NCBI RefSeq assembly: GCF_963921235.1
Contig: NC_086108.1
Location: 65,784,001 to 65,848,000 of the forward strand
Reading direction: 5' to 3'
Length of the DNA stretch: 64,000 bases
Source: Mobula hypostoma
Lineage: Eukaryota
Part shown: one piece after another, positions 1 through 55,044 of the stretch
Layout of the letters: each line of letters begins with the position of its first letter
Numbering within the stretch: position 1 is the first letter of the stretch
Notes under the pieces: model-generated
What the model saw: only the letters and a program-made list of their open reading frames with translations
Databases searched by the model: none
Told to the model about the DNA's origin: nothing
Position numbers and translations under genes: made by a program

Positions 1-3000
1 CTGTGAAACAGACATCGGTGGACCTGTACTTCTACCGTGCTGACTTTGGTAGGAATGCTGGGAAGTGCTGACTGCCATGCAGCTTTAACAGCGCCAGTGC
101 ATCGGGACCTCAGAGGTCTGTGAACTCCATGGGTTCCAGCTGCCAGGGTCATCTACTGTTCATTATGGACACCCTTTTAGGGCGATGTTTCCTGTGTGAC
201 TTGGGTGCTCAAGTGAGTGTTGCCTATTGATGAAAAGGCAAAGAGTGACGAAACCTCACTGGAAACTGTCAACGGCAGTAAGATCCAGACTTATGGGGCA
301 CAACAGGTGAATTTCTGCTTCAGTGGACAACGCTATACGTTGGGCCTCATCTGGCTAAAGTGCCTAGTCCTCTGCTCGGTGCAGATTTCTGTGTGTCCAA
401 GGACTATGAGTCGATCTTAAGAACTGCTGGCTTGTGGTTGTCAAGGACTTTGGGTTGTTACCCTGCTCCCCCAGTAAGCTCCCCACAACAACTCTGTCAA
501 GCACATGAGAGCTTACTCGACCGCTGGGTGAATTCCCAGACCTCACCAAGCCCATATTCCCCACTATAGTTGCAAAACATGGGGTTCAACACCACATTTC
601 CACAACTGTCCCACTAGTTCATATATGCATGTTTAGACTAGACCCAGAAAATCTGGCAACTGTGAAGGCTGAGTTACCAACATGTAAAGACTTGGCATTG
701 TATGCCAGTCGAATAGCCCCTGGGCTTCACCCCTCCATATGGTTCCTAAGTCTGATGGTGGTTGCTGCCCTTGTGGTGATTACCGATGCCTTAATGAGAC
801 CACTACCTTGGAGATTGTCACCCAGTCCTACTCATTCAAGACCTTTCGGCACGTATGATGGAAAGTCAATTTTTTTCAAAGTCAATCCAGTTAGGGGCTA
901 CTATTGGGTGCCTGTCTGTTCAAAGGATATTCCCAAAACAGCTGTGATAACCCCATTTGGCCTTTTTGAGTTTCTGTGTATGCTGTTTGGATTGAAAATT
1001 GCAGCACAGACTTTCCAATGGCTGATGAACTCTGTATATAAGACAGATTTTCTTTTTGTTTACCTGGATGACATACTTGTCGCCAGTGCGTCTAAATCCG
1101 AACACGTATCTCATCTCCATGCACTTTTCCAACACTTAAGCCGACACGGGTTGATTATTAACCCTGCTAAATGCCAGTTTGGGTTGTCAACCATTGACTT
1201 TCTCAGCTATCACATTTCTGCAGAAGGTGCAAAGCCCCTCCCGTCAAAGATAGCTTTCCCGTCACCCCATACTCCTAAAAAAACTACAGGAGTTTTTAGG
1301 CATAGTGAATTTCTATTACTGCTTCATTCCATGAGCAGCTGAACCTATGCTGCCCCTGTAGAGTGTACTAATCAAGTGTTTGACTGGTCAGGGGATATAA
1401 CCCAGGCATTTGATGATACCAAGCGAGTTCTTTCTAACGCGACCCTAATGGCATATCAACTCCCCAATGCATCCATAGCCATCATAACTGAAGCCTCAGA
1501 CTATGCTACGGGTGCTGTGCATGAGCGGCTAGTCAGAGGTGTGTGGCAACTGCTCACCTTCTTCAGTCAGCAGCTCTGTCTACCCAAAAGGAAGTACAGC
1601 ATGTTTGACCATGAGCTTCTCGGTCTCTTATCTGGCTGTCTGCTATTTTCATTTTCTTCCAGAGGGTCACCATTTCACAGTGTTCATTGACTACAAAACC
1701 CCTCGTGCACGTGATGGCCAAATTAGTAGACCCTTGGTCTGCATGGCAGCAATGCCACCTGGCCAATTTAACAATGGATGTACAACATATCAAGGGTAAA
1801 AATAATACCATGGCCAGTTGCTTCTCACAGCCAGCCACTGAGACTGTATACATAAGGGTTGACTATGCCGACATGGCAGCTGACCAAGTTCCTGACCCAG
1901 AGGTCCTGTCTTACTGAACAGCAGACATGAGCATGCAATTGGCTGACATTAAGTTTGGGAAGCTGGGGTTTCCCTCCTGTGTGATTTCTCGCCTTCCTCC
2001 TATTGTGCCTGCATACTGGAGAAAGACTGTTTTCAACTCCTTACATGGCCTCTCACATCTGGAGTAGAAAGCCTCACAAAAACTGCTTGCTCTAAAGTTT
2101 GTTTGGCATGGCCTCCCTCTTCCCCCTTCCCACGTTTTCACGCACCTTCTGACATTGAAACTATGCCACCAGATGGTCAGAGGTCATCCCTCTAGTATTA
2201 ACAACGGCCGCAGATGTGGCTTGGGCGTTCATCAGCACCTGGGTTGCTCAGTTTGGCACCCTATCTGATGTTTCCTCTGACTGTGGACCTCTGGGCTGCA
2301 ATGGCCCAGAACCTTGGCGTTAGGATACATCACATCATGGCTTATCACCTGCAGTCCAATGGCGTATGCAAGCAGTCTCACCGCCCCTTAAAGGCTGCTC
2401 TGCGGGCTTCCCTGACCGATGAGTGTTGGCATGAACATCTTCCATGGGACCTGCTGGGGCTCAGTATTGCTCCAAAAGAGAACCTGCAGTTATTCATGGC
2501 AGAGTCGGCATATGGGCAGCCATTACGAGTTCAAGGTGATTTCTTTCCTGATGCCATGACTGCCTGGTCAGTCTCTCAACAGCGTTCCTTCCTCCTTAGT
2601 AAATTCAATTCCTTTTCACCTACTCCTACCTCCCATCATAGCGTACAGCACCCTTGGGTCCCTGTTGATCTACGTTCCACCTCATTTGTTTTTTGTCCAC
2701 CATGACACACACCATCATCGCCTTAGGCCCCCTTATGATGGCCTATTCTACATTTTGGAACAGGGCGACAAGACTTTTATCATACATAAGAAGGCTAAAC
2801 CTGAGCAGATTTTGGTAGATCACCTTAAACTGGCCCAATAAGATTTGGAGTATTCCGCAGCCCTGCCCCTGACATCATAATGTGACCATGTGAGTGTTAA
2901 TGCACCTCTGCATGAGACAGAGGCACTTGCTGTTCCTTCACCCATGGAATCCAGGACCCAAGTGGGCTGGGGTGGGGGAGAGCTGTGTAGGGTAGCATAA

Positions 3001-3106
3001 TTCGGAGAAATGTACATAAATCACAACTGCCATTGAGTTGCAGTCTTGCTTTAAGAGGCTGGTCTGACATGATGACATTATTATGTAAAAGATTTTTTAG
3101 CATGTT

Positions 3107-3142
3107 AGTCCTGACGAAGGGTCTCGGCCTGAAACGTCGACT
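3107..3142 (+). ncRNA. Minimal type-I hammerhead ribozyme motif
   Basis: AGTC-CTGACGA-AGGGTCTCGGCCT-GAAACGTC-GACT: helix I AGTC/GACT, CUGANGA box, helix II, GAAA box, palindromic ACGU helix III and GUC cleavage triplet. Confidence 0.8.
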
Positions 3143-3199
3143 GTACCTCTTCCTAGAGATACTGCCTGGCCTGCTGCGTTCACCAGCAACTTTTATGTG
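3107..3199 (+). mobile_element. Short Penelope-like (pLTR-derived) insert carrying a hammerhead motif
   Basis: Absent from the other LTR copies. Flanked by a near-perfect 11-bp TSD, TTTAGCATGTT (3096-3106) / TTTAGCGTGTT (3200-3210). Homologous to 16951-17132 and 54678-54788. Confidence 0.8.
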
Positions 3200-3299
3200 T
3201 TTAGCGTGTTGTGTAGGTTTTGGAGTTATATAGTATGTGTAATGGGTTTCAGTAAACATAAAATGCTTCAAATTGTTTTATCTTTGGAAACCTAAAACA

Positions 3300-3470
3300 G
3301 TAACTCAAATAACCATATGTTACAACAGTGGTGATTAGAAGAGCATCTCGGAAGGCATAGCACGTCAAGCCTTGAAGTGAGTGGGCTACAGCAGCAAAAG
3401 ACTACAAACATACACTCAATGGCAACTTGATTACATATGGAGGTACCTAATACATCTGCCAGTGAGTGTA
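3300..3470 (+). mobile_element. 3' part of a Tc1-like non-autonomous DNA transposon (host of the Gypsy insertion)
   Basis: Matches 43393-43540 (ACTCAAATAACCAT...GAAGAGCATCTC...GGGCTACAGCA). Ends in a degenerate terminal inverted repeat (TIR) ...CAGTGAGTG followed by TA. Confidence 0.75.
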
Positions 3471-3499
3471 GATGTACATTGATTATCTAAGTCTTTGTC

Positions 3500-3827
3500 A
3501 GTCTAATAACATGAAGAGGATGTTTTCATAATGGGGAAGTCTAGGACCAGAGATCCTCAGAATATGACATCCCTTTAGAACACAGATGAGGAGGGATTTT
3601 TTTAGTCTAACTTCATTGCTGTGGATGGCTGTGGAAGCCAAGTCATTCAGTATCTTTAAAGTGAGGGTTGAAATGTTCTTGATTAGTAAGGGCATCAAAA
3701 GGTTGCAGAGAGAAGGCAGAAAAATGGCGTTGAGAAGGATAATGAATCTGACATGATGGAGTGGTGGATCAGACTTGATGGGCCAAAAGGGCTAATTCTG
3801 CTCCTGTAATGTCTTTATGGTCTTATA
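3500..3827 (+). mobile_element. Old CR1 LINE 3' fragment
   Basis: Similar to the CR1 ORF2 C-terminus and 3'UTR (GGGAAGTCTAGGACCAGAG...TCTGCTCCTG...TTATGGTCTTAT). Confidence 0.7.
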
Positions 3828-5879
3828 GTTTAGAATTATTGACTCAGACTTTGTAGATAACAACCAAGGACTGCTGCCCATAAAAATTTTCTATCTGTGC
3901 AACATAGATTTTCCTTAATTCAAAGTAACTTTTAATCTTGCCATTTGTGACAGCAGCTGAGAACTCTTCAATCAGTTTGAAGAAATCTCAGAAGTAGCAA
4001 ACCAGAATGTAGAAAACAAGTATCATAATTCATAGTAATATCAATTTCTAGAAACAGCATTAGTAATTGAATTAAGATGAAAGATGAAACGTGCTAGTTT
4101 GATCATATGAGAAATCAGGTAATGATGGACTGATTGCTCTGCAATCAAGCTTGACCTCACTTCTGTATGTAACATCGATCGATTTTGTATACAGTTTGTA
4201 CTTAACTATCCTTCCACACTTTGCAATTTACTAAAGAAATTTTCCTGGATTTCCTTTTATTTTGAAGAGATTGCTTAAATTTTTGTCATTAATCTGATTT
4301 TCTCTCTTCCATTAATGTAAATGTTCTAATTAATTTGCCTTTTCTTCTACGGATGACAGTTTGTCGTGAGTCCAGACGTGCACCCATCCTGTCTCCAATG
4401 TTGCGATGAAAACTTCTAAAAATTGTAGAATTTTAAAATGTCATCCTGATAGGAACTATTATTTTTTTCAGTGCCAGTGAGAGTGGATGAGTGATAGGAC
4501 AGGAAGGAGGTCAGTGATTATTAAACAGAAATTAAAACTAAGTAAACTATTAAACATCTGAGACCTCGAGCATAATACATTCAGTGAGAATAGGAGGTGA
4601 TGTTCACATCTAACCAATGATTTGTGGTCAATTTCATCTGCAATAACTGCAGTTCCATTCCCTGTGGAGCAAAAATGGATCATTGGCATCAATAATAGGA
4701 TCTCTGCATTTAATTGTGCAGGCATGGATGCCAGAAGTTGTTATCAATTTCACACAATAACACTGGTGGGTACAGATAGTTACACTATCAATGTAACTGC
4801 AACTCCAGGCTAATGTGTTATCACCCATTTCACCAATGAACATGTTGTAGTTCTATTAACTGTTCCCTTCCCCATTAGGTGTTATACACATTCAAATCTC
4901 AGCAGTATTTGTCAGCAGTCTAGGTAGATCACAGTTAAAACTCTGCCTCTCACATGCTCAAGCTTGGGCACACACATGCACACAACTCCGTAAGGGAGGA
5001 GGATTCTGATACTTTTTATTGCGAATCCAAACTTGCCAAGCCACCTGTGGGATCCTAATTGCACTCTCAAGGTTAGATGAGCACAGACCAGAGATCAAAT
5101 CTAAACCTTCTTAACGTCAGCTTTCTTTCTCCATTAGGGATTAATCATGAGCCTTCATATACTGTTGAAACAATTACATTTTGCACATATATGTTTCAAG
5201 AATAGTCTAAATGTCTTCAGTTATTATAACTTCATATTCATAAGACACTCCCATCAAGAAGTTTGGAATGATAACTACTTTCTTGTTGTATCACTTGGAG
5301 TACCTGTTAAAGTCACATCACAAACAAAACCCTTAAATTTTCCAGCTTGTCAGTCAATCAGTGTCAAAGGCTCTTGTTTCCCAACCCAAATGTACGAAAC
5401 ATACAGTGAAAGAGACAGAAGATAAGTTAACATATAAAAGCGTGAGTTCCATTCCAGTATAGTGGAACCTTCACAGTTCCCGACCAAAATCTCACCCTTC
5501 CACCCCTGCAGAACAGAAATCTTCTATTGGAAGCAAGAAGCGAAAAATGATTTGGAAATTACTGGAGTATCACATCTTATGACAGGTGTTATCAATTAGT
5601 ATTGTGTTCCCCTTTCTCTTTAGGCAGTGTTAATTTTGAGATGTAAGCTGCTGGAAGCTTAAATTGATAATGGCACTGTATTCAGCAGGGAAAATGGCCC
5701 TTTGGTCCCCGACTGTGTCAAAAATAAAGACAATTTAAATCGCACAACTGCCTGCATGAGGTCTACATCTCTCAATTTCCTGTCTATTTGTGTGCCTCAA
5801 AGTATTTGTTTCCAACACCCTCCCTGGCAACATGTTCCAGCAAATTCCACTTCCAATTTTAAAAAATACTCTGTAAATT

Positions 5880-7038
5880 TCCTATAATTTTCCCCTTCCC
5901 CACAACCACCCCCCCCCCCACCAACCCCACTTCCCAGCTTTAACACTCTACCCTGTAGTATTTGAGAATTCCATTATGGGAAGAAGACTATGACTATCTA
6001 CCCTATCGCTGCCTCTCATCATTTTTTATACCTCAATTTAATCATCCCTCAGCCTCTGACACACCTAAGAACACAATCCTATTTTGTTGAACCTGTCATT
6101 ACAGTTAATACTCTCTGATCTAGGCAACATCCTGGTGAACCACTCCCATACCCTTCCCAAAGCCTCCACAACTTTCCTGTAATGTGGTAATCAGAAATGT
6201 ATATACATTACTCCAAATGTGCCTAACTAAAGTTTTATATGGGTGTAACATGACTTTCTGAATTTTACACACAACAACCTGACCAGTAAATGAAGGAATG
6301 TTGTATCCCTTCTTTACCACCCTTCCTACTTGTATCGCCACTTTCAAGGTGTTATGGACTTGCATTCTGGAGTTCTTCAATGCTCCTAAGGATCCTGATA
6401 CGGACTGTATGGTTTCCTCTTAACTTTCACTTCCTACATTTCACTTCCCCACACTCCTACAGATTAAACTCGATCTGCCTTTTCCCTTTCTACATTTCCA
6501 GCTAGTATATATCCTGCTGAATCCTTTGACAAACTTTCTTATTATTATCCAGCATTCTGCCAATTTTCATGTTGTCTGTAACCTACATTTTCATCCAAAT
6601 CATTTATATATATTACAAACAACAGAGGACACAGTACCGGTCCTTGTGGGACACCACTGGTCACAGTCAGAACAGTAGCCCTCTATCACTACACAAGAGA
6701 TTCTGCAGGTGCTGGCGATCCAGAGTAACACACACAAAATGCTCGGTCAGATAGCAGCTATGAACAGGAATGAAGGGTTGGCATTTTGGGCTAAAACCCT
6801 TCAAGAGAAGGGTCTCAGCCCGAAACATCAACTCTTTATTTCTCCCCATAGATGCTGCCTAAGCTGCTGAGTTCCTCCACCACCAACCTCTGCCAAGTTC
6901 ATTTCAAACACATTCTTGTAAATCTCCATGGATCCCATCAGCCCATCATGAGCGGCCTTGTTGAAACTTTACTAAAGCCCATGTGTATATCATCCATTGT
7001 CATACCCTTATCAATCATCTTCGTCACCTCCTCAAAAA
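5880..7038 (-). mobile_element. Old CR1 LINE RT fragment
   Basis: Minus ORF 6120-6380 (LKVAIQVGRVVKKGY...YKTLVRH) resembles the CR1 RT C-terminal region. Confidence 0.8.
6691..6880. mobile_element. Older Penelope-type pLTR insert with two inverted arms and a degenerate hammerhead
   Basis: TTCTGCAGGTGCTGG...CACACAAAATGCT arm, followed by GAAGGGTCTCAGCCCGAAACATCAACT...GATGCTGCCT. Sits inside the CR1 fragment. Confidence 0.65.
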
Positions 7039-8220
7039 CTCGATGGTTTACAAAGAATAGAGTAAATGATGAGGAAAAAAACCAAGTTTAACTGAAGTCA
7101 ATTTATGTGCTTAAAGAGCAATGGGTGGGGAGGGGAATTGAAGGCGGAATTTATGGATTTGGAACTGGGTTGGAGGTTAACTACTTTTAGTATGAATTCA
7201 CATTGGAAGCCTGAAGTCAACTTGTTGGTCTGGTGGAGTTTGGGTTGTCACCTTCAATAAGACAATCACTCATTAAGGACAATATTAATTGAGGGACTGC
7301 GACCTTTGATGAGAGCAGGCAGATTTCCCAGAACTCACCAATGTAATCACAGCCAGAGTGTACCACTGGATTGCTTTAGTGTAATCCAACCTCAAGTCAC
7401 ATTCTATGTTTACACAAGGATGTTGTGCGAGAAGGATGATTAGAAAACTTGGAGATATATTTTTAGTCAATGGAGAAAAAATCGATAATGCTGTTCAGTT
7501 GCCTAACTTTAAAATTGACTGCCTTAAAGTGTAGGTCTCTGTGGCCAAATAAGAAAAATTGTTATGTATGGTGCCTTCCTTTTGCCTCAGAGGGTGACAC
7601 AATTGCGACGGTCAACTGGCAGACTATCCATCAATGACCCACAGCTGCACTGAAGGGAAGTGTGCAGTTCCCAGCACAAATGTAGAAGATATGTTCCTCA
7701 AATACATCTAAGCAGTGTTACTTCATCACGTTGCATGAGTTGCAGAGAGGCATTTGTAGCTGGGATAAGATGTCTGTATAATGAATGGATTTAGTAGTCA
7801 CAATTTTGCATTGATTATCAAAGCATTCCCATCCCAGGACCCTAACAGGTCACAATTAGAAACCTCTACATGATTTCCCATTTATTGGTATACTCTTGTA
7901 CAAGATAGGAACTCAAAGGATTTTCTTCCAGAGAAGCAAGTTAGACAACTTTGCCTCTAATGAAACCAGATGGGATAGGCAAATGTGTGTGTTCACTACA
8001 CCAGCTGAATTACAATGAGTGCAAGGACTCATTGATTATGGGAACACCACTATCTGAGTGTTCTTCATCTTTCTGTGCAGATACAGATGTGCACATGGTT
8101 GCATGGCAGCTGGCTTGACTTTTAGCAATTCACAGGTAGATAGATAGGGTCATAATCTTTCCTGGAGATAGGTGACCAAAACTGCACATAATGCTCCAAA
8201 TTAGGTTTCACCAACATCTT

Positions 8221-8913
8221 AGAAATATAGAAACATAGAAAACCTACAGCATAATATAGGCCCTTCGGCCCACAAAGCTGTGCTGAACATGTCCTTACCT
8301 GAGAAATTACCTAGGGATACCCACAACCCTCTATTTTTCTGAGCTCCACATACCTGTCCAGGAGTCTCTTAAAAGACCCTATTGTATCCACCTCCACAAC
8401 CGTTGCCAGCAGCCCATTCCACGCACTCACCACACCCTGCATAAAAAAAATTCCCCTGATATCTCCTCTGTACCTACTTCCAAGCACCTTAAAACTGTGC
8501 CCTCTCGTGCTAGCCATTTCAGCCTTGGGAAAAAGCCTCTGACTATCCACACAATCAATGCCTCTCATCATCTTATACACCTCTATCAGGTCACCTCTCA
8601 TCCTCTGTCGCTCCAAGGAAAAAAGGCCAAGTTCACTCAACCTATTTTCATAAGGCATGCTCCCCAACCCAGGCAACATCCTTGTAAATCTCCTCTGCAC
8701 CCTTTCAATGGCTTCCACATCCTTCCTGTAGTGAGGCGACCAGAACTGAGCACAGTACTCCAAGTGGGGTCTGACCAGGGTCCTATATAGCTGCCACATT
8801 ACCTATAGCTCCTAAGCTCAATACCATGATTGATGAAGGCCAATGCACTATATGCTTTCTTACCACAGAGTCAACCTGCACTGTAGCCTTGAGTGTCCTA
8901 TGGACTTGGACCC
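8221..8913 (-). mobile_element. 5'-truncated CR1 LINE (second subfamily), nested in an older CR1
   Basis: ORF 8311-8799 QLYRTLVRPHLEYCAQFWSPHYRKD and (GAAACATA)n tail at 8221-8240. Highly similar to 25335-26356. Confidence 0.92.
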
Positions 8914-8978
8914 AGTTGTATAATCTTGTACAACTTCAACATAACATCCCAACTCCTGTACTCAATATTTTGATTAAA

Positions 8979-10140
8979 TAGAATCAGAATCAGATTAATA
9001 TCACCGGTATACGTCATGAAATCTGTTGCTTTGCAGTACAGTATATTGCAATATATAATCATAAAAAAACTATAAATTACAATAAGAAATGTGTATTGAA
9101 GATTACATTAAGTCAGTAGTGCAAAAAGAGAGCAATAGAAAAAAAAAGTGTGGTAGTGTATATCGGTTCATTGTCCATTCAGAAATCTGATGGTGGAGGA
9201 GAAGAAAACGTTCCTGAATTGTTGAGTTGTGTCTTTGGGCTCCTGTACCTCCTCAATGATGGTAGCAATGGGAATAGGGCATGTCCAGTATGATTGAGTT
9301 CATTAATGATGGACCCTACCTTTTTGAGGCATCGGCTTTTGAGGGTGTCCTCAATGCTGGGGAGACTAGTAGCCATGATGGAGCAGGCTGAGCTTACAAC
9401 TTTCTGCAGCTTCTTCCAATCCTGTGCATTGGCCCCTATAAGCCAGGTGAGATGCATCCATTTAGAATGCATCTGCAGAAATTTGTGAGAGTCTTTGGTG
9501 ACAGTCTCCTGAAACTCCTAATGAAGTATAGCCACTGTCGTGCCTTCTTTGTAATTGCATCAATATGTTAGACCTAGGACACCCAGGAACTTGAAACTGC
9601 TCACACTTTCCACTGCTGATCCTTCAGCAAGGATTAGTATGTGTTTCCTCAAGATCCCCTTCTTGAGGTCAACTGACATTGAGTGTAAAGTTGTTGCAAT
9701 ACCACCCAACCAGCTGATCTATCTTGCTCCTGTATGCCTCCTTGTCAGCTTGCGAAATTCTGCTAACAATAATTGTGTCATTGGCAGATTTATAGATGGC
9801 ACTTGAGCTCTGCCTAGCCACACAATCGTGTGTGTAGAGAAAGTAGAGCAGTGGGTTAAGCATGCACCATCCTTGAGGAACACCAGTGCTGATTAGCAGC
9901 GAGGCAAAAATGTTATTTCTGATCTGCACCGACTGTGGTCTCTCACTGAAGAAGTCCAGGATCCAGTTGCAGAGGCCCAGGTTTTGGAGTCTGTAGATTA
10001 GAACTGAAGGTATGATTGTGTTGAATATTGAGCTGCAATCAATAAACGGCAGCCTGATGTAAGTATTGCTATTGTCCATGTGACCTAAGGCCAAGTGGAG
10101 AGCCAGTAAGACTGCATCTGTTGTAGACCTATTGTGGCAT
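8979..10140 (-). mobile_element. Rex1/Babar-type LINE, 5'-truncated
   Basis: RT pieces [18 protein letters not shown]...GVPQG...[11 protein letters not shown] (9669-10094) and KLQKVVSSACSI...HTGHALFPLLPS (9179-9472). (AGAATC)n tail. Confidence 0.88.
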
Positions 10141-11596: not shown

Positions 11597-13693
11597 ATAG
11601 AAACATAGAAACATAGAAAATAGGTGCAGGAGTAGGCCATTCGGCCCTTCGAGCCTGCACCGCCATTTATTATGATCATGGCTGATCATCCAACTCAGAA
11701 CCCCGCCCCAGCCTTCCCTCCATACCCTCTGACCCCTGCAGCCACAAGGGCCATATCTAACTCCCTCTTAAACATAGCCAATGAACTGGCCTCAACAGTT
11801 TGCTGTGGCAGAGAATTCCACAGATTCACCACTCTCTGTGTGAAGAAGTTTTTCCTAATCTCGGTCCTAAAAGGCTTCCCCTCTATCCTCAAACTGTGAC
11901 CCCTCATTCTGGACTTCCCCAACATCGGGAACAATCTTCCTGCATCTAGCCTGTCCAATCCCTTTAGGATCTTATACGTTTCAATCAGATCCCCCCTCAA
12001 TCTTCTAAATTCCAACGAGTACAAGCCCAGTTCATCCAGTCTTTCTTCATATGAAAGACCTGCCATCCCAGGAATCAATCTGGTGAACCTTCTTTGTACT
12101 CCCTCTATGGCAAAGATGTCTTTCCTCAGATTAGGGGACCAAAACTGCACACAATACTCCAGGTGTGGTCTCACCAAGGCCTTGTACAACTGCAGTAGTA
12201 CCTCCCTGCTCCTGTACTCGAATCCTCTCGCTATAAATGCCAGCATACCGTTCGCCTTTTTCACCGCCTGCTGTACCTGCATGCCCACTTTCAATGACTG
12301 GTGTATAATGACACCCAGGTCTTGTTGCACCTCCCCTTTTCCTAATCGGCCACCATTCAGATAATAATCTGTTTTCCTATTTTTGCCACCAAAGTGGATA
12401 ACTTCACATTTATCCACATTAAATTGCATCTGCCATGAGTTTGCCCACTCACCCAACCTATCCAAGTCACCCTGCATCCTCTTAGCATCCTCCTCACTGC
12501 TAACACTGCCACCCAGCTTCGTGTCATCCGCAAACTTGGAGATGCTGCATTTAATTCCCTCATCCAAGTCATTAATATATATTGTAAACAACTGGGGTCC
12601 CAGCACTGAGCCTTGCGGTACCCCACTAGTCACCGCCTGCCATTCTGAAAAGGTCCCGTTTATTCCCACTCTTTGCTTCCTGTCTGCTAACCAATTCTCC
12701 ACCCACACCAATACCTTACCCCCAATACCGTGTGCTTTAAGTTTGCACACTAATCTCCTATGTGGGACCTTGTCAAAAGCCTTTTGAAAATCCAAATATA
12801 CCACATCCACTGGTTCTCCCCTATCCACTCTACTAGTTACATCCTCAGAAAATTCTATGAGATTCGTCAGACATGATTTTCCTTTCACAAATCCATGCTG
12901 ACTTTGTCCGATCATTTCACCGCTTTCCAAATGTGCTGTTATCACATCCTTGATAACTGACTCCAGCAGTTTCCCCACCACCGACGTTAGGCTAACCGGC
13001 CTATAATTCCCCGGTTTCTCTCTCCCTCCTTTTTTAAAAAGTGGGGTTACATTAGCCACCCTCCAATCCTCAGGAACTAGTCCAGAATCTAACGAGTTTT
13101 GAAAAATTATCACTAATGCATCCACTATTTCTTGGGCCACTTCCTTAAGCACTCTGGGATGCAGACCATCTGGCCCTGGGGATTTATCTGCCTTCAATCC
13201 CTTCAATTTACCTAACACCACTTCCCTACTAACTTGTATTTCGCTCAGTTCCTCCATCTCACTGGACCCTCTGTCCCTTACTATTTCTGGAAGATTATTT
13301 ATGTCCTCCTTAGTGAAGACAGAACCAAAGTAATTATTCAATTGGTCTGCCATGTCCTTGCTCCCCATAATCAATTCACCTGTTTCTGTCTGCAGGGGAC
13401 CTACATTTGTCTTTACCAGTCTTTTCCTTTTTACATATCTATAAAAGCTTTTACAGTCCGTTTTTATGTTCTCTGCCAGTTTTCTCTCATAATCTTTTTT
13501 CCCCTTCCTAATTAAGCCCTTTGTCCTCCTCTGCTGAACTCTGAATTTCTCCCAGTCCTCAGGTGAGCCACTTTCTCTGGCTAATTTGTATGCTTCTTCT
13601 TTGGAATTGATACTATCCCTAATTTCTCTTGTCAGCCACGGGTGCACTACCTTCCTTGATTTATTCTTTTGCCAATCTGGGATGAACAATTGT
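11597..13693 (-). mobile_element. Young CR1/HER1-type LINE, 5'-truncated, with an uninterrupted RT frame
   Basis: 664-aa ORF 11695-13689 with KSPGPDGLHPRVLKE, YLDFQKAFDKVPH, GVPQGSVLGP and KFADDTK. 3' stem-loop and (GAAACATA)n tail. Confidence 0.98.
11695..13689 (-). pseudogene. CR1 ORF2 fragment (RT domain intact, endonuclease absent)
   Basis: ORF track shows complete RT motifs. The 5' truncation removes the APE endonuclease domain. Confidence 0.9.
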
Positions 13694-15099
13694 TATAGGG
13701 CTTGTCTGTGGATTTACTACATGCATCAAGTTTCCTAGGATTCAGTGTGAATGCTGAACTTGTTCAAGGAAGCTCTGAGCGCATCCTGCAATCTATTTCT
13801 CTTATTTCCTAGTAATCATCTTCCACAGCGGAGACTGGAGTAAAGGATAGTTTTTGGAGATTGATATTGGACATTGTGAACAACATGGCCTGCTCAGACA
13901 GCCTCATGAAATTGACTGGTTACTGCAGGGATGTTGGACTGGAAAATAATACTGACAATATTTGCATTTTTTTCCAGTGAACTTGGAGGACTTTGTGGAG
14001 ACATCAGTATGTCCAAGCAGTTTTATGTAATTCAAGGTTACTTAAAGCACCTTGCTAATTATTTTTGTTTGTCTATCTTGAACATAAAAGGTATTTTCTT
14101 GCAAAATTGCCTACCTTTTAAATTCTAAAAATATGAAATTCAGAGCTTATCAAAATCTCTCTGTACTGGTTGTTTTATTGGTCATAGGCTGTCTTAGCTA
14201 GTTGATAAAAAATAGTAAATTCCCTTTGAGAGACTAAGGAGATTCTGTTTCTGTCATCATTATCCCTTCTTAGAAACTAGAAGCAGTACTTTGCTCTTCA
14301 ATAACTTTTATCTTTAGCTATAAATTTGTGAAAATTAATATTCTACATTTTATGGTTTTCATCTCTTCAATTTAATCACTTTATGTAAAACAATGCAAAA
14401 AGTAGTACTTAAGGTATATGCAATGAAGCTGCAGGGGTTATAGTAATATGCTCCAACAAGTATGCCGAAATACAGATACAATAACTCACTTAATTCAATA
14501 AAACCATGAGCTGATCGGTATTTTCAAAGAAAATTACAGGAAGTCAAAGAATATCTACATTCCCTAAGGACTCTGAAGGACTGATATTATTTGAATCTGC
14601 ATCAGTAGCTGGATTTAAGAAGTTATTCTTAACCATTCTGATGTGTTGCTTGCAATAAAGATTAAAAATAACCTAACTGCCCAACTTCTATGGGTATCCT
14701 TTTGACTTTAATCTGAAAACGTTTTGCATCCTGGAAATGTTCAATGCCTTTGCTGCACCTAGAGAAGTCAAAACATAGAGATCTTTAAGTTATGAGAAAC
14801 AAACTTCACAACATTGCTATTTTAATTTCTGGATCTTCCCCGAGATCCTCATCAGGAATCTGGAGCTTCTCTTACGTTCTGCATGTAAAGCTTCAGTCCT
14901 CAGCTCAGTATAGGCTGCAGACCACTGCAATGCTTTCAATTTAACTTTTGGCTCTTCTTCCCCTTGAACTTGAGCAGTTGATGGGTGCACAGCATCAAAA
15001 AACAAACTTTTTTTTCCCCGAGCCATAATTTCTAAGGGCTTCTATTATGTTCATGTAGACAGCATTAAATCTCGTTCTAATAATCTGAGTACCTCACCA

Positions 15100-15830: not shown

Positions 15831-16950
15831 CTGGTGAATTTAATTAATGTTTGTCTCTAAAGCTGTTATGAATACTAATAAGCTGCTAAAATTCATCATT
15901 CCCACCTGTTGTTTTAAATTAAGTATTCTTCAATACTTATTGCAGCTGGTTTTTGAGATAAGGTGCAAATTCCCTTGTGTGAACGCAAATGGCTTTATTT
16001 GACAATTAATGTCACTGTACATGCAGAATTGGCAAGGTTTAGAAATAAAATAAAGAGTGGGGTCAGAATGATGTATTATACTTCATTTGACATGCAGGAA
16101 TTTTGTATCCCTAGTCAACAATCCTGTAGCTGGCAATTGTTAACACAAAGAACTTTCACAAAAAATGGATGGATGAAGGCACGAAGTTAAAATGATCTAA
16201 AGCACACTATAAGGAATACTTCTGAGTTGCCAATACTGCCAGTGAATGAATCACCTTTAACCTTACAGTCGTCATTTTTAGGGCTGATAATGCTAAGTTA
16301 GAGAGCAAAACAACATGAGGTGCAATTCACGTTAATTGTAGAGAGATTTTAATGATAGAGGTGGAGTTATACCAGGTGCATGGTGCTGAATGACAGATAG
16401 CTGTCATGTCAAAGTAGCAAAGTGACATCAAAAGATGCCCTCGCTGGAAATGGTTCACGTTTCTCTGTTCAAAAATTTCTCATGCTTATTGTTAACCTAT
16501 TTCATCTAAATTTCTTTCTATTTGTCTGCTAACCGAAAATTGCAGAACCTCGCATTTGCACATAATAAGCAATTTGACAGACGTTATAGTTACACAACGT
16601 AGAGTAAACCCTTATATTTCACCATTCACCAAAACTTTTACATTATGGATTTTGTAACTTGAAATTGTGGGATGAAATATATTTGTGAAAAAGGTGTTGT
16701 AAGCTTTCTTTTAATTATAGTGACACAGCTTTGGTAATGTTCTAGTCCGTTGTGTGGAAATAAAGAAGTTATATCATTCTTACTGATAAACCAGTATGTT
16801 GCTGAAATGCTGGCTCTCAGTGAGAGGATATTCATTTTCTGATCTAGGCTACATGAGCTGTGGCAATGCTAAGTCTGCCTGTGCTCTTTCTAATTGGAGG
16901 AAAGGTGAATTCCTCTAGGTAATCGGGCCGGACAACAATTCATGATGATT

Positions 16951-17132
16951 CAAACAACAGGAATTCTGCAGATGCTGGAAATTCAAGCAACACACATCAA
17001 AGTTGCTGGTGAACGCAGCAGGCCAGGCAGGACTAACTTAGTCCTGACGAAGGGTCTCGGCCTGAAACGTCGACTGCACCTCTTCCTACAGATGCTGCGT
17101 GGCCTGCTGCGTTCACCAGCAACTTTGATGTG
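16951..17132. mobile_element. Penelope-type insert with two inverted pLTR arms and a perfect 14-bp TSD
   Basis: AATTCATGATGATT at 16937-16950 and 17133-17146. Arm CACATCAAAGTTGCTGGTGAACGCAGCAGGCCA and its reverse complement. Confidence 0.88.
17040..17075 (+). ncRNA. Minimal type-I hammerhead ribozyme motif
   Basis: AGTCCTGACGAAGGGTCTCGGCCTGAAACGTCGACT, identical to 3107-3142. Confidence 0.8.
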
Positions 17133-17349
17133 AATTCATGATGATTAGAAGTTTTGTATAGGGGACGTTGGTCAATGTCACTTCTAAGCCACTTTGGCAG
17201 TTGAAGAGACTATTGACAATCAATCTATGAATGAATGAAACAAAAGAGAATTCATTATAATGGGTTTCATCTTTTCTAAAAAGAAATACTTCTGGACAGC
17301 AGTGTGAGGATATTTGATTTTGGAGCAATTACCTTAAGATAATATTCAT

Positions 17350-27605: not shown

Positions 27606-30600
27606 CTCTCCCGCCACCAAATTCAGTCATGTCCTCATGATGTTGAGATAATTTGCTAACCCTTCCTGCAAAGCAGAAAGTCCAACCCAGGTGTAAAAGG
27701 CAGTGACATAGTTCCCCAAAGCGGTAGGGGCCACACTCTGTCCCCCAGTGCTACATAGGCCAGCCTATCCAGCGTTCTCCTGATTCTTTGAGACCTCTGT
27801 ACCCCCTCATCTACTTCTTCATGTTCCATCACTACTGGGGATACTTCTGGTCGACCTGGCGAGGCCTCCCCTGATCTATCATCCGTGCCCTCCTGCAACT
27901 CAGACCCCTCTGTCCCTTGGCTGAGCCCCGTTTCATCCTTGCAAGGACCCGCTGAAACCCAGGCATTCCACAGATAGCCCCCCCGCCCCCCCCCCCCGAT
28001 TTCACCTGACTCGGTGTGAGAAGGGTTAGGAATCTCCTCCTCAATCAGTGGGGAGTTAGCAAAAGGCAGCATATACCACACCCCCATTTCCTCATCCTCC
28101 AAATCAGAATCTCACTCAGGGGCGGGGGCCAGTCTAATTTCTCCCGCTGTTGGTCCTTCAGTCACTTTGCGATGCTGCACAGTTCTCTTACTAGGTGTAG
28201 GCTCCAGGTCGAGCTCTGGGTCAACCCTTTGTCCCAGAGGCAGAAGTTGGTTCCAATGGAGAATTTTGACAGGCCCATTCCCATCCCCTGGTTTCACCCA
28301 GAAAACTGGTACATTTGGCATCTGACTCTCCACTATGCTTATGCTTCCCGGGTAGCCCCAAATTCCTTATGAGGACTCAATCTCCTGGCATGGGTTGGGC
28401 AAACCTAACCTTTTGATCATACCTCCTCTTATTTCCTTGATTCTGCTTGGCAGCCACGACCTCAGCTAATTCATAAGCCTTTTTCAGCTCCCTTCTGATA
28501 TCAGACACAGACTTTTGATAAGTCTTTGGCGGTATGTCATCCTCGTCAGTCCTAAAGCAAGGGTCAATGGGCAACTTCGCCTTGTGCCCAAACATCAGAT
28601 AATATGGCGAGCCTGGTAGCTTCATTTCGGGTACAGTTGTAGCAGTGTTTAATATGTTGACTCCACCTGCTCTTCTTGCTGATCTCCAAGGTTCTGAGCA
28701 TGTCTAGCAAGGTCTGATTAAAGCCCTCAGGCTTGGAATCACCCTGCGGGTGATAAGGAGTAGTCCTCGACTTCTCTACTCCAAGCATGCTCAGTAACTC
28801 ATGGATGAGCCTGCTCTCGAAATCCCGTCCCTGATCACTATATATCCACCTGGGAAGGCCATAATAAATGAAATACTTCTCCCATAACACTTTGGCCACC
28901 GTAAACGCCCTCCGGTCCTTGGCAGGGAAGCCTGTGCATATCCGGTGTAGCGATCCGTGATGACTAAGACATTCGCCGTGTTGCTGGCATCTGGCTCTGT
29001 TGACAGGAAATCCATGCACACCAGGACCAGGGGCCCCGCACTCTGCAAGTGGGATAATGGAGCTGCCCTCGGAGGCAGCATCTTCCTCCGTATGCATTGA
29101 ATGCATCCCTGTCCAGCCCTTCATGTGTCCCTGTTCCTACTTCCTAGCCGGTACTTCAGGCTGAAATCATAGGCAGACAATGACCAATGGCCTGTGGCAT
29201 CCAATTTCGCTGAGGTCAGGATATAAGTTAGGGGATTGTTGTCCATCCTCATCTCAAATGTGGCACCATAGAGGTAGTCACTCAGCTTATCCACCACAGC
29301 CCTTTTCAATGCCAGAAACACCAACTTGTGAGTGGGATATTTTTTCTCAGGGGCGACAGACTCTGGCTGACAATCGCAACAGGTATCAACCCAATGCCCT
29401 GATACTGATACAGGATGCCCCCTAAGCCCTCTCTGCTGGCATCTGTATGCAGTACATATGGCAATTGGGGGTCTGCAAAAGCCAGCACAGGCACCAGGGT
29501 CAGCGTCTCATCAGCGACTGAAAGTCCTCTTCACATTTCGCATCCCATCAAAATAAATGCCAACAGGCTCCGAAGGGTTAAGATACTCTTTACCCTCCTC
29601 TTCTTTTGTCCCCCTCCCTTTCTTCCCCAAGGGAGGGTAATTGCACAGAAAATGATTTAAAGAGTGACTCACTTTCGCCTAACCCTTCATGACCCTCCGA
29701 TAGTAACCACAGAACCCAAGGAATAAGAACAAAGCACTCATAGCCGGGGCCCTTGGTCATGTGATCACTGCCTCCATCTTAGCCAGATCGTAGCTACTCC
29801 ATCCCGTGAAACTGTATGTCTAACATAGTTGATAGACATCTTGCAGAACTGGCACTTGTCCAGGGAAAGATTTAACCCTTCAGCTTTCAGGCGGCCCAGC
29901 ACCTTCAGTAGTCTTGCTTTATGCTCTTCCAAGGTGGATCCAAACACTATGAGGTCACCCAGATACACCAATACCTCAAGCAAGTTCATATTCACCCACT
30001 GCTTTCTCCATGACATGCTGGGACGTTGCAGGGGCTCCTGATATGCCATGGGGCATCCATTCGAACTGGAAGAATCCCAGTGGAAAAATAAATGCCGTCT
30101 TCTCTTCGTCATACTCACTCATGGGGAACTGGTAATATCCACTCCTCAAGTCCAGCACACTGAACCACTTTGCACCACTCAGACAGGCCAATGCGTCTTT
30201 GATCCTTGGAACTGTATACTGTTCACGGATGGTACGCCTGATCAGAGTCCTATAGTCCACACACATCCGTACCTTCCCATTCTTCTTCCTGGCCACTGCT
30301 ATTACGGATGTATAGGGGCTTCTGGACTCAGTGATGACCCCAGCTTCCCACAACTTACACAAATGCTGCCGACCGACTTCCACCTCTGTAGGGGCCAGTT
30401 GTCGCGACCTCTCTCTGAACAGGGTGTCCTTGATCACCTGGATAGTGTGATGAGTGCTTTTGGAACAACCACATCAAACTCGTCAGTGGAAAAGACACCT
30501 TTCAGCTTCAGCATCTTCTCTATCAAACTCCTCTTCCAACCTGCAGGCACTGGGGAGTCCCTGAAGTTGAATGACTCAGCGGTCATCTTTCCCCCTTTTT

Positions 30601-32370: not shown

Positions 32371-35300
32371 TGTAACCCTCAGGTTCGGCCGGCGGCATTA
32401 GTCTAGGGAAGGCAGTCTCTGGCCCCGCCAAACGTGTGAAATCTGAGGTACAAAACTTCTTGGTTGTGTGGATGCTGTGTGATGTGTTCCCCGGTTACAA
32501 ATCAGTACCACAAAAGAACAGACGGTAAACCATATGCAGTTAAATGATTTAGCTTTATAATTCCTAATTTGACTAGAGGGTTAGTAAAGAAAAACAAAAA
32601 GAAAAGGGCCCATCTTAATGAAACAATCTAATGTGCACATTTGGAGCTCATGGTTTCCCTTCTGGTTGTCCTCCATCCAGTTGGGATCACAGAGACATGG
32701 CTCCAGGGTGACCAGGGATGGGAGCTCAACCTTCAGGGATATTCAATATTCAGGAGGGATAGACATGAAGGAAGGGGAGGTGGGGTGGCGTTGCTGGTTA
32801 AAGAAGAGATTAACGCAATAGAAAAGAAGGACATAAGCCGGGAAAATGTGGAATCGATATGGGTAGAGCTGCGTAACACCAAGGGGCAGAAGACGCTGGT
32901 GGGAGTTGTGTACAGGCCACCTAACAGTAGTAGTGAGGTCGGAGATGGTATTAAACAGGAAATTAGAAATGTGTGCAATAAAGGAACAGCAGTTATAATG
33001 GGTGACTTCAATCTACATGTAGACTGGGTGAACCAAATTGGTAAAGGTGCTGAGGAAGAGGATTTCTTGGGGATGTATGCGGGATGGTTTTTTGAACCAA
33101 CATGTCGAGGAACCAACTAGAGAGCAGGCTATTCTGGACTGGGTTTTGAGCAATGAGGAAGGGTTAATTAGCAATCTTGTCGTGAGAGGCCCCTTGGGTA
33201 AGAGTGACCATAATATGGTGGAATTCTTCATTAAGATGGAGAGTGACATAGTTAATTCAGAAACAAAGGTTCTGAACTTAAAGAGGGGTAACTTTGAAGG
33301 TATGAGACATGAATTAGCTAAGATAGACTGGCAAATGACACTTAAAAGATTGACGGTGGATATGCAATGGCAAGCATTTAAAGGTTGCATGGATGAACTA
33401 CAACAATTGTTCATCCCAGTTTGGCAAAAGAATAAATCAAGGAAGGTAGTGCACCCGAGGCTGACAAGAGAAATTAGGGATAGTATCAATTCCAAAGAAG
33501 AAGCATACAAATTAGCCAGAGAAAGTGGCTCACCTGAGGACTGGGAGAAATTCAGAGTTCAGCAGAGGAGGACAAAGGGCTTAATTAGGAAGGGGAAAAA
33601 AGATTATGAGAGAAAACTGGCAGGGAACATAAAAACAGACTGTAAAAGCTTTTATAGATATGTAAAAAGGAAAAGACTGGTAAAGACAAATGTAGGTCCC
33701 CTGCAGACAGAAACAGGCAAATTGATTATGGGGAGCAAGGACATGGCAGACCAATTGAATAGTTACTTTGGTTCTGTCTTCACTAAGGAGGACATAAATA
33801 ATCTTCCAGAAATAGTAAGGGACAGAGGGTCCAGTGGGATGGAGGAACTGAGCGAAATACATGTTAGTAGGGAAGTGGTGTTAGGTAAATTGAAGGGATT
33901 GAAGGCAGATAAATCCCCAGGGCCAGATGGTCTGCATCCTAGAGTGCTTAAAGAAGTAGCCCAAGAAATAGTGGATGCATTAGTGATAATTTTTCAAAAC
34001 TCGTTAGATTCTGGACTAGTTCCTGAGGATTGGAGGGTGGCTAATGTAACCCCACTTTTTAAAAAAGGAGGGAGAGAGAAACCGGGGAATTATAGACTGG
34101 TTAGCCTAACGTCGGTGGTGGGGAAACTGCTGGAGTCAGTTATCGAGGATGTGATAACAGCACATTTGGAAAGCGGTGAAATGATCGGACAAAGTCAGCA
34201 TGGATTTGTGAAAGGAAAATCATGTCTGACGAATCTCATAGAATTTTTTGAGGATGTAACTAGTAGAGTGGATAGGGGAGAACCAGTGGATGTGGTATAT
34301 TTGGATTTTCAAAAGGCTTTTGACAAGGTCCCACACAGGAGATTAGTGTGCAAACTTAAAGCACACGGTATTGGGGGTAAGGTATTGATGTGGGTGGAGA
34401 ATTGGTTAGCAGACAGGAAGCAAAGAGTGGGAATAAACAGGACCTTTTCAGAATGGCAGGCGGTGACTAGTGGGGTACCGCAAGGCTCAGTGCTGGGACC
34501 CCAGTTGTTTACAATATATATTAATGACTTGGATGAGGGAATTAAATGCAGCATCTCCAAGTTTGCGGATGACACGAAGCTGGGTGGCAGTGTTAGCAGT
34601 GAGGATGATGCTAAGAGGATGCAGGGTGACTTGGATAGGTTGGGTGAGTGGGCAAATTCATGGCAGATGCAATTTAATGTGGATAAATGTGAAGTTATCC
34701 ACTTTGGTGGCAAAAATAGGAAAACAGATTATTATCTGAATGGTGGCCGATTAGGAAAAGGGGAGGTGCAACGAGACCTGGGTGTCATTATACACCAGTC
34801 ATTGAAAGTGGGCATGCAGGTACAGCAAGCAGTGAAAAAGGCGAATGGTATGCTGGCATTTATAGCGAGAGGATTCGAGTACAGGAGCAGGGATGTACTA
34901 CTGCAGTTGTACAAGGCCTTGGTGAGACCACATCTGGAGTACTGTGTGCAGTTTTGGTCCCCTAATCTGAGGAAAGACATCTTTGCCATAGAGGGAGTAC
35001 AAAGAAGGTTCACCAGATTGATTCCTGGGATGGCGGGACTTTCATATGAAGAAAGACTGGATGAATTGGGCTTGTACTCGTTGGAATTTAGAAGATTGAG
35101 GGGGGATCTGATTGAAACGTATAAGATCCTAAAGGGATTGGACAAGCTAGATGCAGGAAGATTGTTCCCGATGTTGGGGAAGTCCAGAACGAGGGGTCAC
35201 AGTTTGAGGATAGAGGGGAAACCGTTTAGGACCGAGATTAGGAAAAACTTCTTCACACAGAGAGTGGTGAATCTGTGGAATTCTCTGCCACAGGAAACTG

Positions 35301-37479: not shown

Positions 37480-40400
37480 AATTTACTCCCATATCTGGTT
37501 GGAATACAGCAAGTATCACTGGAGCAATTTTTTGCAAATTGTTTGAGAAAATTCTACAGGATAGGACTTGTGTACATTTGGAATGAGAGGGGCTGACGAG
37601 AACAGTTAACATGGCTGTCTGCAAGGAAAGCCCTGTGACACAAATTTGATTAGAGTCTTTAGAGGAGATAACCAACAAGACTGATAGAGGCAGGGTGATA
37701 GATGTTTGCATGGAATTCAGTAAGGTTTTTGATAAGGTCCCATTGTAGAGTAATGTAATTGGGAGAAATGTACATAATTCATAACCACCAACATTGAGTT
37801 GGGGTTTTGCTTTAAGAGGCTGGTCTGATGTGATGACGTTGTTACTTAAAGGGTTTTTAGCACGTTTTGTATTCAATATTTTTTGATATTCAATAAATGA
37901 GTTTCTATGGCTTTCCTAAAACATAAAACAACTCTACCATTTTATTTGCAAAACCTACACTGGCGACTACAATGCTCCAGGATGATTCTAGAGTTATTGA
38001 ACATGTCACTTTGAAACTGCTGGAGTTTTTTGAGAAAAACGCCTCTGCTTGGTTTGCACAAGCTGAGGCCTAATTTGTTCCTTGAGAAATCTCTGCCGAC
38101 GACAGCAACTTCTACTACATGGTAGCATCGCTCAGAATTCTGCGGCTCCAAGAGGGGTGAGTCTACTGGAACATCCGCATGAACATGATGAATACTGATC
38201 ACTGAAAACTTTCCTTTTATAGACGTTTGGACTATCGGAGTCTGAACGCGCCAAAGTTGCTCTCCTTACCCAGTCTCAGTGATGCTCGGCCTTCTGAGCT
38301 AATGGACCACATGCTATATCTCCTGTGAAATCACCATCCTTGTTTTACTTTTAAAGAACTCTTCATGCAGCAAATGTCTGATCAAGATCATATAGCCCTT
38401 GCTTATGCACCCATGAAGTACTATAGGGAGTTTGCTTAAATGGCTGACAGTCTACACTCAGCTGTGCAGTGGTAGCTTATTCTTCCTCCCTTCTGTACCT
38501 CAATAAACCCGGTCAGCAAGGCCACCACCATAAGGACACTGGCAGTTATGAATCAGATGACACCGGGCCTGATTTTTATCACACGTGCTTTGGTACCAGC
38601 CACCTTGCAGCTTCAACAGTGCCAGTGCAGTGGGACATCAGAGGTCTGTGAACACCGCGGGTTCCAGCTGCCAGAGTAAACTACTGTTCATTACGGACAC
38701 TCTTTCAGGGTGACGCTTCCTGTGTGATATGGGTATTCAAGTGAGTGTGCTGCCAGCATCACCTACTGATGAGAAGGCAAAGAGTAACAAAACTCGCTGG
38801 AGGCCACCAACAGCAGCAGGAATCAGACTTATGGGACATGACAGGTGATGCTCTGCTTCAGTGGGTGACATTACACATGGGACTTCGTCCTGGCTAAAGT
38901 AGCTAGGCTTCTGCTCAGTGCAGATTTCCTGCATGCCCAAAGACCATTGGTCGATCTTAGGATGCTGGCTTGTGGATGTCAAGGACTTTGGGTCATTACC
39001 CGCTCACCTAGAAATTTCCCCACAACGACTCTTTCAAGTTCATGACCACCACATGCGAGTTTACTCAACTGCTGGGCAAATTCCCAAACCTCACCAAGCC
39101 CACATTCTCCACTACAGTCGCAAAACATGGGACTGAGCAACAAATTTCCACAACTGGCCTACCAGTCCATGCCTGCGTGCTTGGGCTGGACCCTGAAAAT
39201 CTGGCAACCATGAAGGCTGAGTCTGTCGACATGGAAATACTTGGCATTGTACTAGGATTGAATCACCCCTGGGCTTCACCCCTCCATATGGTCCCAAAGT
39301 CCGATGGATGTTGCCACCCACGTGGTGATTACCAGCACCTTAATGAGGCCACCAGCCAGTTCCACACATCCAAGACTTTACTGCATGTTTACCTGGAAAC
39401 TTAATTTTACCAAAGTCATTCAGGTTAGGGGCTCCAGGCCTGTGTGCCTGGAGGATATTCCCAAAACTGTGGTGCTAACCCCATTTGGTCTTTTTGAGTT
39501 TCTTCTCATATTGCTTGGACCGAAAAATGCAGCACAGACTTTCCAATAGCTGTTGGACTGTATTAAAAGACTTAGATTTTCTTTTCATTTACCTAGATGA
39601 CATACCTGTCACCAATGCATCCAAATCTGAACAAGCATCTCATCTCCACACACTTTTCGAGCGCTTAAGCCAACACAGGTCGATTAGTAACCCTGCTAAA
39701 TGACAGTTTGATTTGTTAACCATTGACTTTCTCAGCCATCGCATCCCCACCAAAGGTGTGAAAGCCCGCCCATCAGATATAGACACTATTATGGACTTTT
39801 CACTGCCCCACACCACTAAAAAAGCTACAGGAATTTTTAGGCATGATATATTTCTATCAATGCTTCATTCCACGAGCTGCTGACTTATGCTCCCCTTGTA
39901 TACTGTACTCAAAGACAATACCACTAATCAACACCTTGGCTGGTCGGTGGACATGACCTGGGCATTTGATGATACCAATTGAGGTCTTTCTAACGGGACC
40001 CAACTAGCACACCGGCTCCCCAATGCACCCATAGCTATTACTACTGATGCTTCAGACTATATTGTGGGTGCTGTTGGAAGCGTGTGGTAGCTGCTCGCGT
40101 CCTTCAGCAGACAGCTCTGTCTCCCCGAAGCGCAGTACAGCACATTAGGCCGTGAGCTTCTCAGTGTCTATCTGGCTGTCTGCTATTTTTGTTTGCTTCT
40201 AGAGCATCGCCATTTCACAGCATTCATTGATCACAAGCCCATCATGCATATGTTGGCCAAAGTATCAGACCCTTGGTCTGCACGGCAGCAACCCACTGGG
40301 CGTACATATCCGAGTTCACAACTGATATACAGCATATCAAGGGTAAAAATAATGCCACGGCCAGCCACGGAGGCTGTACACATGGGGTTGACTATGCTGG

Positions 40401-54677: not shown

Positions 54678-54788
54678 AGCAACACACATAAAAGTTGCTG
54701 GTGAACGCAGCAGGCCAGGCAGCATCTCTACGAAGAGGTGCAGTCGACGTTTCAGGCCGAGACCCTTCGTCAGGACTAACTGAAGGAA
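54678..54788 (-). mobile_element. Short Penelope-type insert with a hammerhead motif
   Basis: Reverse complement of 3107-3199 with few differences. Confidence 0.8.
54742..54777 (-). ncRNA. Minimal type-I hammerhead ribozyme motif
   Basis: Minus strand reads AGTCCTGACGAAGGGTCTCGGCCTGAAACGTCGACT, identical to the other two copies. Confidence 0.8.
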
Positions 54789-55044
54789 GGCATAGTAAAT
54801 GAGAATCTATTTGTATAATAATTAGATAAATTGATGTGAAAGTGACAGTCATGGTTATAAACTTCATCAACACCAAAGGAGAGTTGATTGTGCATTGTAG
54901 TCTATTCTTTCCCATATTTGATGTTTCATAAAACAATAATAACGAAAGGTGTAAACTCAGCAGCAAATAAGAGCCAGGTTGCCCCCTGCTGGCTAGAAAA
55001 TGAATTATGTAAACTTGTATAATTCAGTTTGTATTGTCATTGAA

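Follow-up and report, generated by a model that had tools for sequence, protein, structure and literature searches.

A minimal hammerhead motif inside a Gypsy-type LTR very likely belongs to the truncated 3' tip of a Penelope-like retroelement

The window analysed here is a stretch of 64,000 nucleotides, in which a short insert with a hammerhead motif splits the 3' LTR of a decayed retroelement (Table 1). A preliminary description of this DNA had assigned the host LTR to a Gypsy element, and this assignment holds. The host element has a reverse transcriptase (RT) recognised by Pfam RVT_1 (E 6e-17), and in a sibling of this element an integrase zinc finger (E 3e-9) lies downstream of the RT. 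An RT followed by an integrase is the domain order of Gypsy elements. The insert was also described as missing from sibling LTRs, and a second sibling LTR, at about 41540-41737, likewise aligns to both flanks and not to the insert. The insertion into the LTR postdates the insertion of the LTR itself. The length of about 93 bp given earlier is correct, while the 11-bp target-site duplication is imperfect; the last three bases of its left copy also match the inserted element's own upstream sequence. As a separate observation, the window contains at 37744-41737 a decayed Gypsy-type element with both LTRs present, which has about 75% identity to the host of the insert.

LTR retrozymes are defined by a type-III hammerhead integral to both LTRs (10.64898/2026.07.22.740005). 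We rejected this identity for the insert, the motif of which is type-I, missing from the sibling LTRs and bounded by its own target duplication.

The 36-nt motif recurs with zero mismatches at 17040-17075 (+) and 54742-54777 (-), as previously noted, and none of 100 shuffled sequences contains a match. Positions in the element are counted below from hammerhead C3 (window 3111), which places the predicted cut after +27 (window 3138). The copy at 17040-17075 belongs to an inverted twin, the minus-strand arm of which comprises element positions +51 to +130 and is tailed, the plus-strand arm comprising -6 to +88 and being short. This twin is flanked by a perfect 14-bp duplication (16937-16950 and 17133-17146), and for the third copy no target duplication was found in the flanking sequence inspected. 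Several decayed copies had been reported in the window; these amount to one decayed hammerhead-bearing copy and the minus-strand arm of the twin. Apart from 24 codons in this inverted arm, the window contains no coding sequence of a Penelope-like element (PLE).

Table 1. Features at the insertion site and related features elsewhere in the window
Feature	Position	Strand	Basis
3' LTR (TG...CA, preceded by purine tract) of the decayed Gypsy-type host, split by the insert	2986..3299	+	80% identity to sibling LTR 37744-37866; RT upstream at 509-1339
Target-site duplication, left copy	3096..3106	+	10/11 identical to 3200-3210; single copy in sibling LTR
5'-truncated Penelope-like element insertion (93 bp)	3107..3199	+	94-95% identity to both L063 pLTRs; target duplication sets bounds
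Minimal type-I hammerhead motif	3107..3142	+	Sequence; fits the descriptor in PMC4209133
Target-site duplication, right copy	3200..3210	+	Pairs with 3096-3106
Decayed copy, older subfamily of the same Penelope-like element	6807..6874	+	75% identity, E 3e-7 within the window
Second copy, inverted twin	16951..17132	.	Minus-strand arm 16951-17030 and plus-strand arm 17038-17132
Sibling Gypsy-type LTR with empty target site	37744..37959	+	Alignment to both insert flanks, insert missing
Third copy (element -16 to +95)	54678..54789	-	95.5% identity to L063

The boxes CUGANGA, GAAA and GUC, a helix I of AGUC and GACU and a palindromic ACGU, all named in the preliminary description, are present in the sequence. 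Helix I pairs 3107-3110 with 3139-3142, the core box lies at 3111-3117, helix II at 3119-3130, GAAA at 3131-3134 and ACGU at 3134-3137. The core C3-A9, G12-A15.1, U16.1, H17, helices I and II and the palindromic helix III stub are all in place, and helix III can form solely between two copies. Lunse et al. reportedly described hammerhead dimer cleavage in 2017.

Minimal hammerheads are found in the pseudo-LTRs (pLTRs) of metazoan PLEs, mostly in solo truncated copies (Cervera and De la Pena 2014, PMC4209133). The motif shares with them the type-I layout, a helix I of 4-5 bp, an unpaired base between A9 and 10.1, the palindromic 15.2-16.2, the location in a pLTR and the presence of thousands of solo truncated-PLE copies. 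It differs in that helix II is just 4 bp long and that the commonest variant has a G-U in place of the G10.1-C11.1 pair, which is reported there as highly conserved although it stands outside the descriptor. The copy at 3107 and the intact masters L051 and L063 all have U at 11.1, closing helix II with a G-U wobble.

A scan of the whole window with Rfam returned no matches at E up to 1. We read this silence as the models missing a motif that has no helix III and not as evidence against a hammerhead. Folding energy gives no signal for five stretches (z -0.31 to +0.31) or for the monomer (z -0.37). The predicted minimum of the monomer (-10.0 kcal/mol) would pair core G5-G8 with bases at the cut site, the hammerhead-like fold being predicted at -6.0 kcal/mol. 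For the dimer the predicted minimum is a non-hammerhead duplex (-28.3 kcal/mol against -9.5 kcal/mol for a hand-built hammerhead dimer, in what is a rough model).

Searching the 3.48-Gb assembly revealed near-identical copies across many contigs. Most of 30 loci fetched extend 5' of the 93 bases, some into the C-terminus of a GIY-YIG endonuclease, and walking upstream from copies led to RT plus GIY-YIG and then to complete elements. The search for an autonomous PLE with RT and GIY-YIG that had been proposed earlier is thus answered by the locus L063, a partial tandem in which two hammerheads 3,516 bp apart, one per pLTR, flank an open frame of 1,043 codons (1968-5096). The association of the minimal type-I hammerhead with PLEs, stated in the preliminary description, is confirmed by this element of the same genome. 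The window copies have 94-97% identity to its pLTR tip. The 93-bp insert corresponds to the 3' tip of the pLTR, from 4 nt before C3 to about +88, with the short, untailed class of 3' end.

The L063 protein matches RVT_1 (E 4e-5) and GIY-YIG (E 1e-3), both matches being below the Pfam curated cut-offs, and it contains the motifs DKG and RYIDD, a CX4CX2C linker and CCHH. A CX2-5CxxC linker between RT and endonuclease lies at residue 910 of the frame and is present in 92 of the 120 relatives listed. Relatives number 1,069 among 8,000 scored candidates, and the closest named one among them is a Chiloscyllium punctatum protein (72%). By the structural features tested, which are an open reading frame with RT then GIY-YIG, tandem pLTRs, truncation, inverted arms, a tail and a target duplication, the element is an endonuclease-positive PLE. 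PLEs are described as forming partial tandems and inverted arms and as bearing a tail at one of their ends (PMC8557442, PMC3846280). The clade is probably Neptune, as judged by motifs rather than by a tree with named references. Neptune-clade PLEs (PMC8557442) resemble the element in their single frame with RT then C-terminal GIY-YIG, CX2-5CxxC linker, CCHH, partial tandems, inverted 5' arms and optional tail of 30-40 bp; the linker is also reported in Nematis and is thus common to both clades.

Another complete locus, L051 (G000:C12:173174500-173184400), consists of two tandem units with a period of 3,515 that are 99.4% alike and carry three hammerheads. In both units the open frame departs from the RT-endonuclease frame at an identical point before the endonuclease, giving 935 codons against the 1,043 of L063. 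Since this frame shift is common to both units, the tandem likely derives from an RNA that was defective beforehand or from a local duplication. A third candidate, L040, with hammerheads 3.3 kb apart, was rejected as a full element because it consists of two separate insertions with other DNA between them.

The family had been called abundant and young, and the counts agree. Exact genome counts are 32,886 for the 36-mer, 4,891 for its C11.1 variant and 58,714 for a 32-mer downstream, with 0 for reversed controls. The first of these is greater than the 4,000-9,000 motifs reported for coelacanth and Xenopus (PMC4209133). A 400-kb set of evenly chosen places contains 12 young-type and 29 hammerhead-covering matches, which suggests, as a rough extrapolation, some 100,000 young-type and 250,000 hammerhead-covering copies in the genome. 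Individual copies were studied in a sample consisting of the first 100 of the 58,714 copies anchored by the exact 32-mer, all within the first 4.9 Mb of one contig; this anchor misses a young variant, as 0 of the 12 near matches in the 400 kb are exact where 6.8 were expected.

In this sample the 5' ends range from +50 to beyond -875, and 27 copies reach the endonuclease-coding end. The 3' ends form two groups, 61 short (near +82 to +101) and 39 tailed (near +122 to +141), and the distance of about 40 nt between them corresponds to the PLE 'tail'. An inverted 5' arm is present in 42 of the copies. At all 27 distinct loci where both ends of a twin are measurable, one arm is short and the other tailed (p 9e-10), and the inverted twin of the window follows the same rule.

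We consider it very likely that the insert represents the 3' tip of a Penelope-like retroelement that is endonuclease-positive and has full-length copies in the genome, and likely that it arose by truncated copying of uncleaved RNA. The preliminary description had instead proposed an ORF-less family that moved on its own. This does not agree with the presence of an autonomous element, with the subfamily variants that the short copies share with it or with their ragged 5' ends. Haplotypes are common to 22 short and 33 long copies (4 copies with indels were dropped), and the three window copies represent three different haplotypes, each also found among long copies. Of 22 short non-inverted copies 15 lie between target duplications, as do 5 of 462 mismatched controls, so the short copies are real, independent insertions. 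Their haplotypes are shared with long copies and their 5' ends are ragged, and truncation of the autonomous element's products explains them better than a separate lineage does.

The copies of 93-140 bp could instead form a separate non-autonomous family, SINE-like or a retrozyme monomer, which arose from the pLTR and is mobilised in trans by the Penelope protein. In about a fifth of the sample (19 of 100 copies) the 5' end lies no more than 8 nt from C3, a pile-up that a separate short master would equally give; most short copies have target duplications of their own, and vertebrate retrozymes are described as PLE derivatives (10.64898/2026.07.22.740005). Such a family seems improbable to us, since the short copies have neither private diagnostic bases nor a fixed 5' end of their own, their ends grading into longer truncations, and since the pile-up is also seen in older subfamilies.

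The locus L062 is of interest in this respect. On its minus strand, at 3369-3680, three head-to-tail units of 104 bp that are 99% alike, each with a complete hammerhead, adjoin a truncated PLE body at its 5' end. Such a tandem speaks for a separate family, but this array runs into the PLE body and is not free-standing. It is a retrozyme-like array arising from the pLTR, and a natural candidate for dimer cleavage. Non-LTR retrozymes resemble the insert in their type-I hammerhead, PLE origin and noncoding short copy (PMC7229834, 10.64898/2026.07.22.740005), but they are defined as tandem units each with a hammerhead (10.64898/2026.07.22.740005), whereas the insert is solo and identical to the pLTR tip. 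We rejected this identity too, the window copies being solo or inverted twins and the L062 array the one such array found elsewhere. A further locus pair, L113 and L158, consists of short copies 2.8 Mb apart with a common 5' end (+36) and left flanks that are almost identical, which suggests a segmental duplication rather than two insertions.

Returning to the truncated copies of the autonomous element, their 5' ends mark the points at which copying ended. Of 58 non-inverted copies, 12 have their 5' end between -8 and -1, an excess over neighbouring positions (p 1e-7), and the interval from +26 to +32 around the cut site contains no end at all. In a broader set of 113 copies, which overlaps the first, 29 ends fall between -7 and -3, with the mode at -3 and none at -8. 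The pile-up at the 5' edge of helix I recurs in older subfamilies. With ends at the edge of helix I and none around the cut site, the template is not the cleavage product.

The short copies might nevertheless be cDNAs of the 3' self-cleavage product or of released circular monomers, the hammerhead then driving the spread of the family. PMC4209133 put forward such a route, and the motif is complete. Between subfamilies the 36-nt block is also more conserved (80-86%) than the sequence on either side (43-53%), although the copies were picked on the block and its value is biased upward. We regard the route as highly improbable. Besides the empty interval around the cut site, the window copies contain the motif's 5' half, U occupies 11.1 in the variant that dominates genome-wide, an older subfamily has a changed core position, and ribozyme-dead RNA of an anole element inserted normally in vitro (PMC11167929).

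The two non-consensus positions were inherited from masters and occur in amplified subfamilies, U11.1 in the dominant young one and A6C in an older one. U11.1 was considered as mere CpG decay and rejected, because the intact tandem masters carry U, which outnumbers C by about 7 to 1, and because other CpG positions are changed in 37 of 536 cells. At non-CpG positions in 67 copies, changes in the core number 1/402 against 28/1,809 in the comparison, a marginal difference (p 0.048). In the older subfamily (L103, L176, L004, L070, L185, L201-L227), 5 of 7 unselected copies have a C at core position 6. Genome-wide, A6C counts 242 against 124 for an A6T control, which is weak by itself; 30 A6C copies fetched comprise 8 young-type, 15 old-type and 7 unclassed. 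Natural A6C hammerheads are reported to cleave slowly in magnesium (PMC3088659, PMC7151607), manganese being favoured over magnesium by the position-6 C variant (PMC7151607).

The best studied comparison is PAc, a Poseidon element of the green anole, which is reported to prime internally at two sites, to use mainly uncleaved RNA as its substrate and to have a ribozyme that is assisted by protein (Frangieh et al. 2024, PMC11167929). Core mutations in PAc had no effect on insertion, and cleavage needed protein (PMC11167929). By analogy, the departures from consensus seen here would agree with an element whose insertion tolerates such mutations. In both elements the hammerhead precedes two start sites of reverse transcription, from which the tail results, with no sign of a cleaved RNA template. 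PAc belongs to a different clade, and its frame starts inside helix II (PMC11167929), whereas the first in-frame ATGs lie here 88 and 166 nt after C3. The 5' pile-up, the twin rule and the non-consensus ribozyme positions fit uncleaved RNA as the template. The element's own enzyme would likely have nicked the LTR and copied just the last 93 bases of uncleaved element RNA; published PLE biochemistry suggests that GIY-YIG makes the nick and that priming occurs internally, at either of two sites that follow the hammerhead. The hammerhead, being part of the pLTR, is a passenger in this process. On its own, a copy like 3107-3199 is probably inactive, since forming helix III takes either a second copy or the protein of the element.

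In each of the four subfamilies seen, helix I is preceded by a pyrimidine tract that ends in CAG. Such a tract fits the consensus of a splice acceptor or of an initiator-like start. The inference we prefer is that the RNA begins at the edge of helix I and that priming at the first pLTR runs off after 90-140 nt. Alternatively, the cDNA could be trimmed back to a hairpin; the ends stop at the edge of helix I, but the DNA hairpin predicted there is weak (-3.3 kcal/mol). The 5' ends scatter across some five bases and are blurred by chance junction matches; a start site, a splice acceptor and a hairpin-protected cDNA end are all compatible with them. In Drosophila virilis Penelope an intron ends at helix I (PMC4209133) and a start site lies within the pLTR (PMC8557442). 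We found no common sequence between target duplication and element, as a spliced leader would leave, in the short copies inspected. Among 22 sequencing runs, no RNA run with the element was listed. GT-AG joints were seen in 0 of the 15 joints listed, out of 26, from four runs of guessed type searched in contig form, which does not preserve RNA ends; this counts neither way.

We tentatively suggest a fuller reading, one that we hold to be possible but somewhat short of an even chance, in which the roughly 100,000 copies record a Neptune-type cycle. The transcript would start at, or be spliced to, helix I, and a protein dimer would prime once at each of two sites, leaving one short and one tailed arm per twin. 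Priming at the first pLTR would yield run-off copies of 90-140 bp, which would be among the commonest products. The ribozyme would stay uncut and the motif be retained chiefly as a structure for starting or recognition and less for cutting, since subfamilies with a weakened core (G10.1-U11.1, A6C) were still amplified.

The finding itself changes little, since this kind of element has been known since 2014. Its practical value lies in an intact, young and very high-copy Neptune-type PLE in a cartilaginous-fish-like genome, in which the mechanics of insertion can be read statistically; the only reconstituted PLE in the literature compared is a Poseidon element. The 5' pile-up, the strict rule of one short and one tailed arm per twin and the natural ribozyme variants offer direct tests of the role of the PLE hammerhead in vivo. 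PLEs are reported to have expanded in whale shark introns (10.1101/443036). Among the papers listed in our literature search, none was devoted to an elasmobranch PLE hammerhead; the supplements of the 2026 retrozyme preprint (10.64898/2026.07.22.740005), for which one chondrichthyan was sampled, may name this PLE family. Two scans of metagenomes for related loci gave 137 and 88 pattern matches, none of which was confirmed.

The window also contains other mobile elements. A young LINE is present in four copies with 96-99% identity (11597-13698, 32679-35439, 48434-49085 and 59647-62458), and at 33032-35401 it has kept an open frame of 789 codons with an RT (E 1e-32). On the minus strand, 28564-29136 is an integrase-core fragment of another element (Pfam rve, E 5e-5, below the cut-off).
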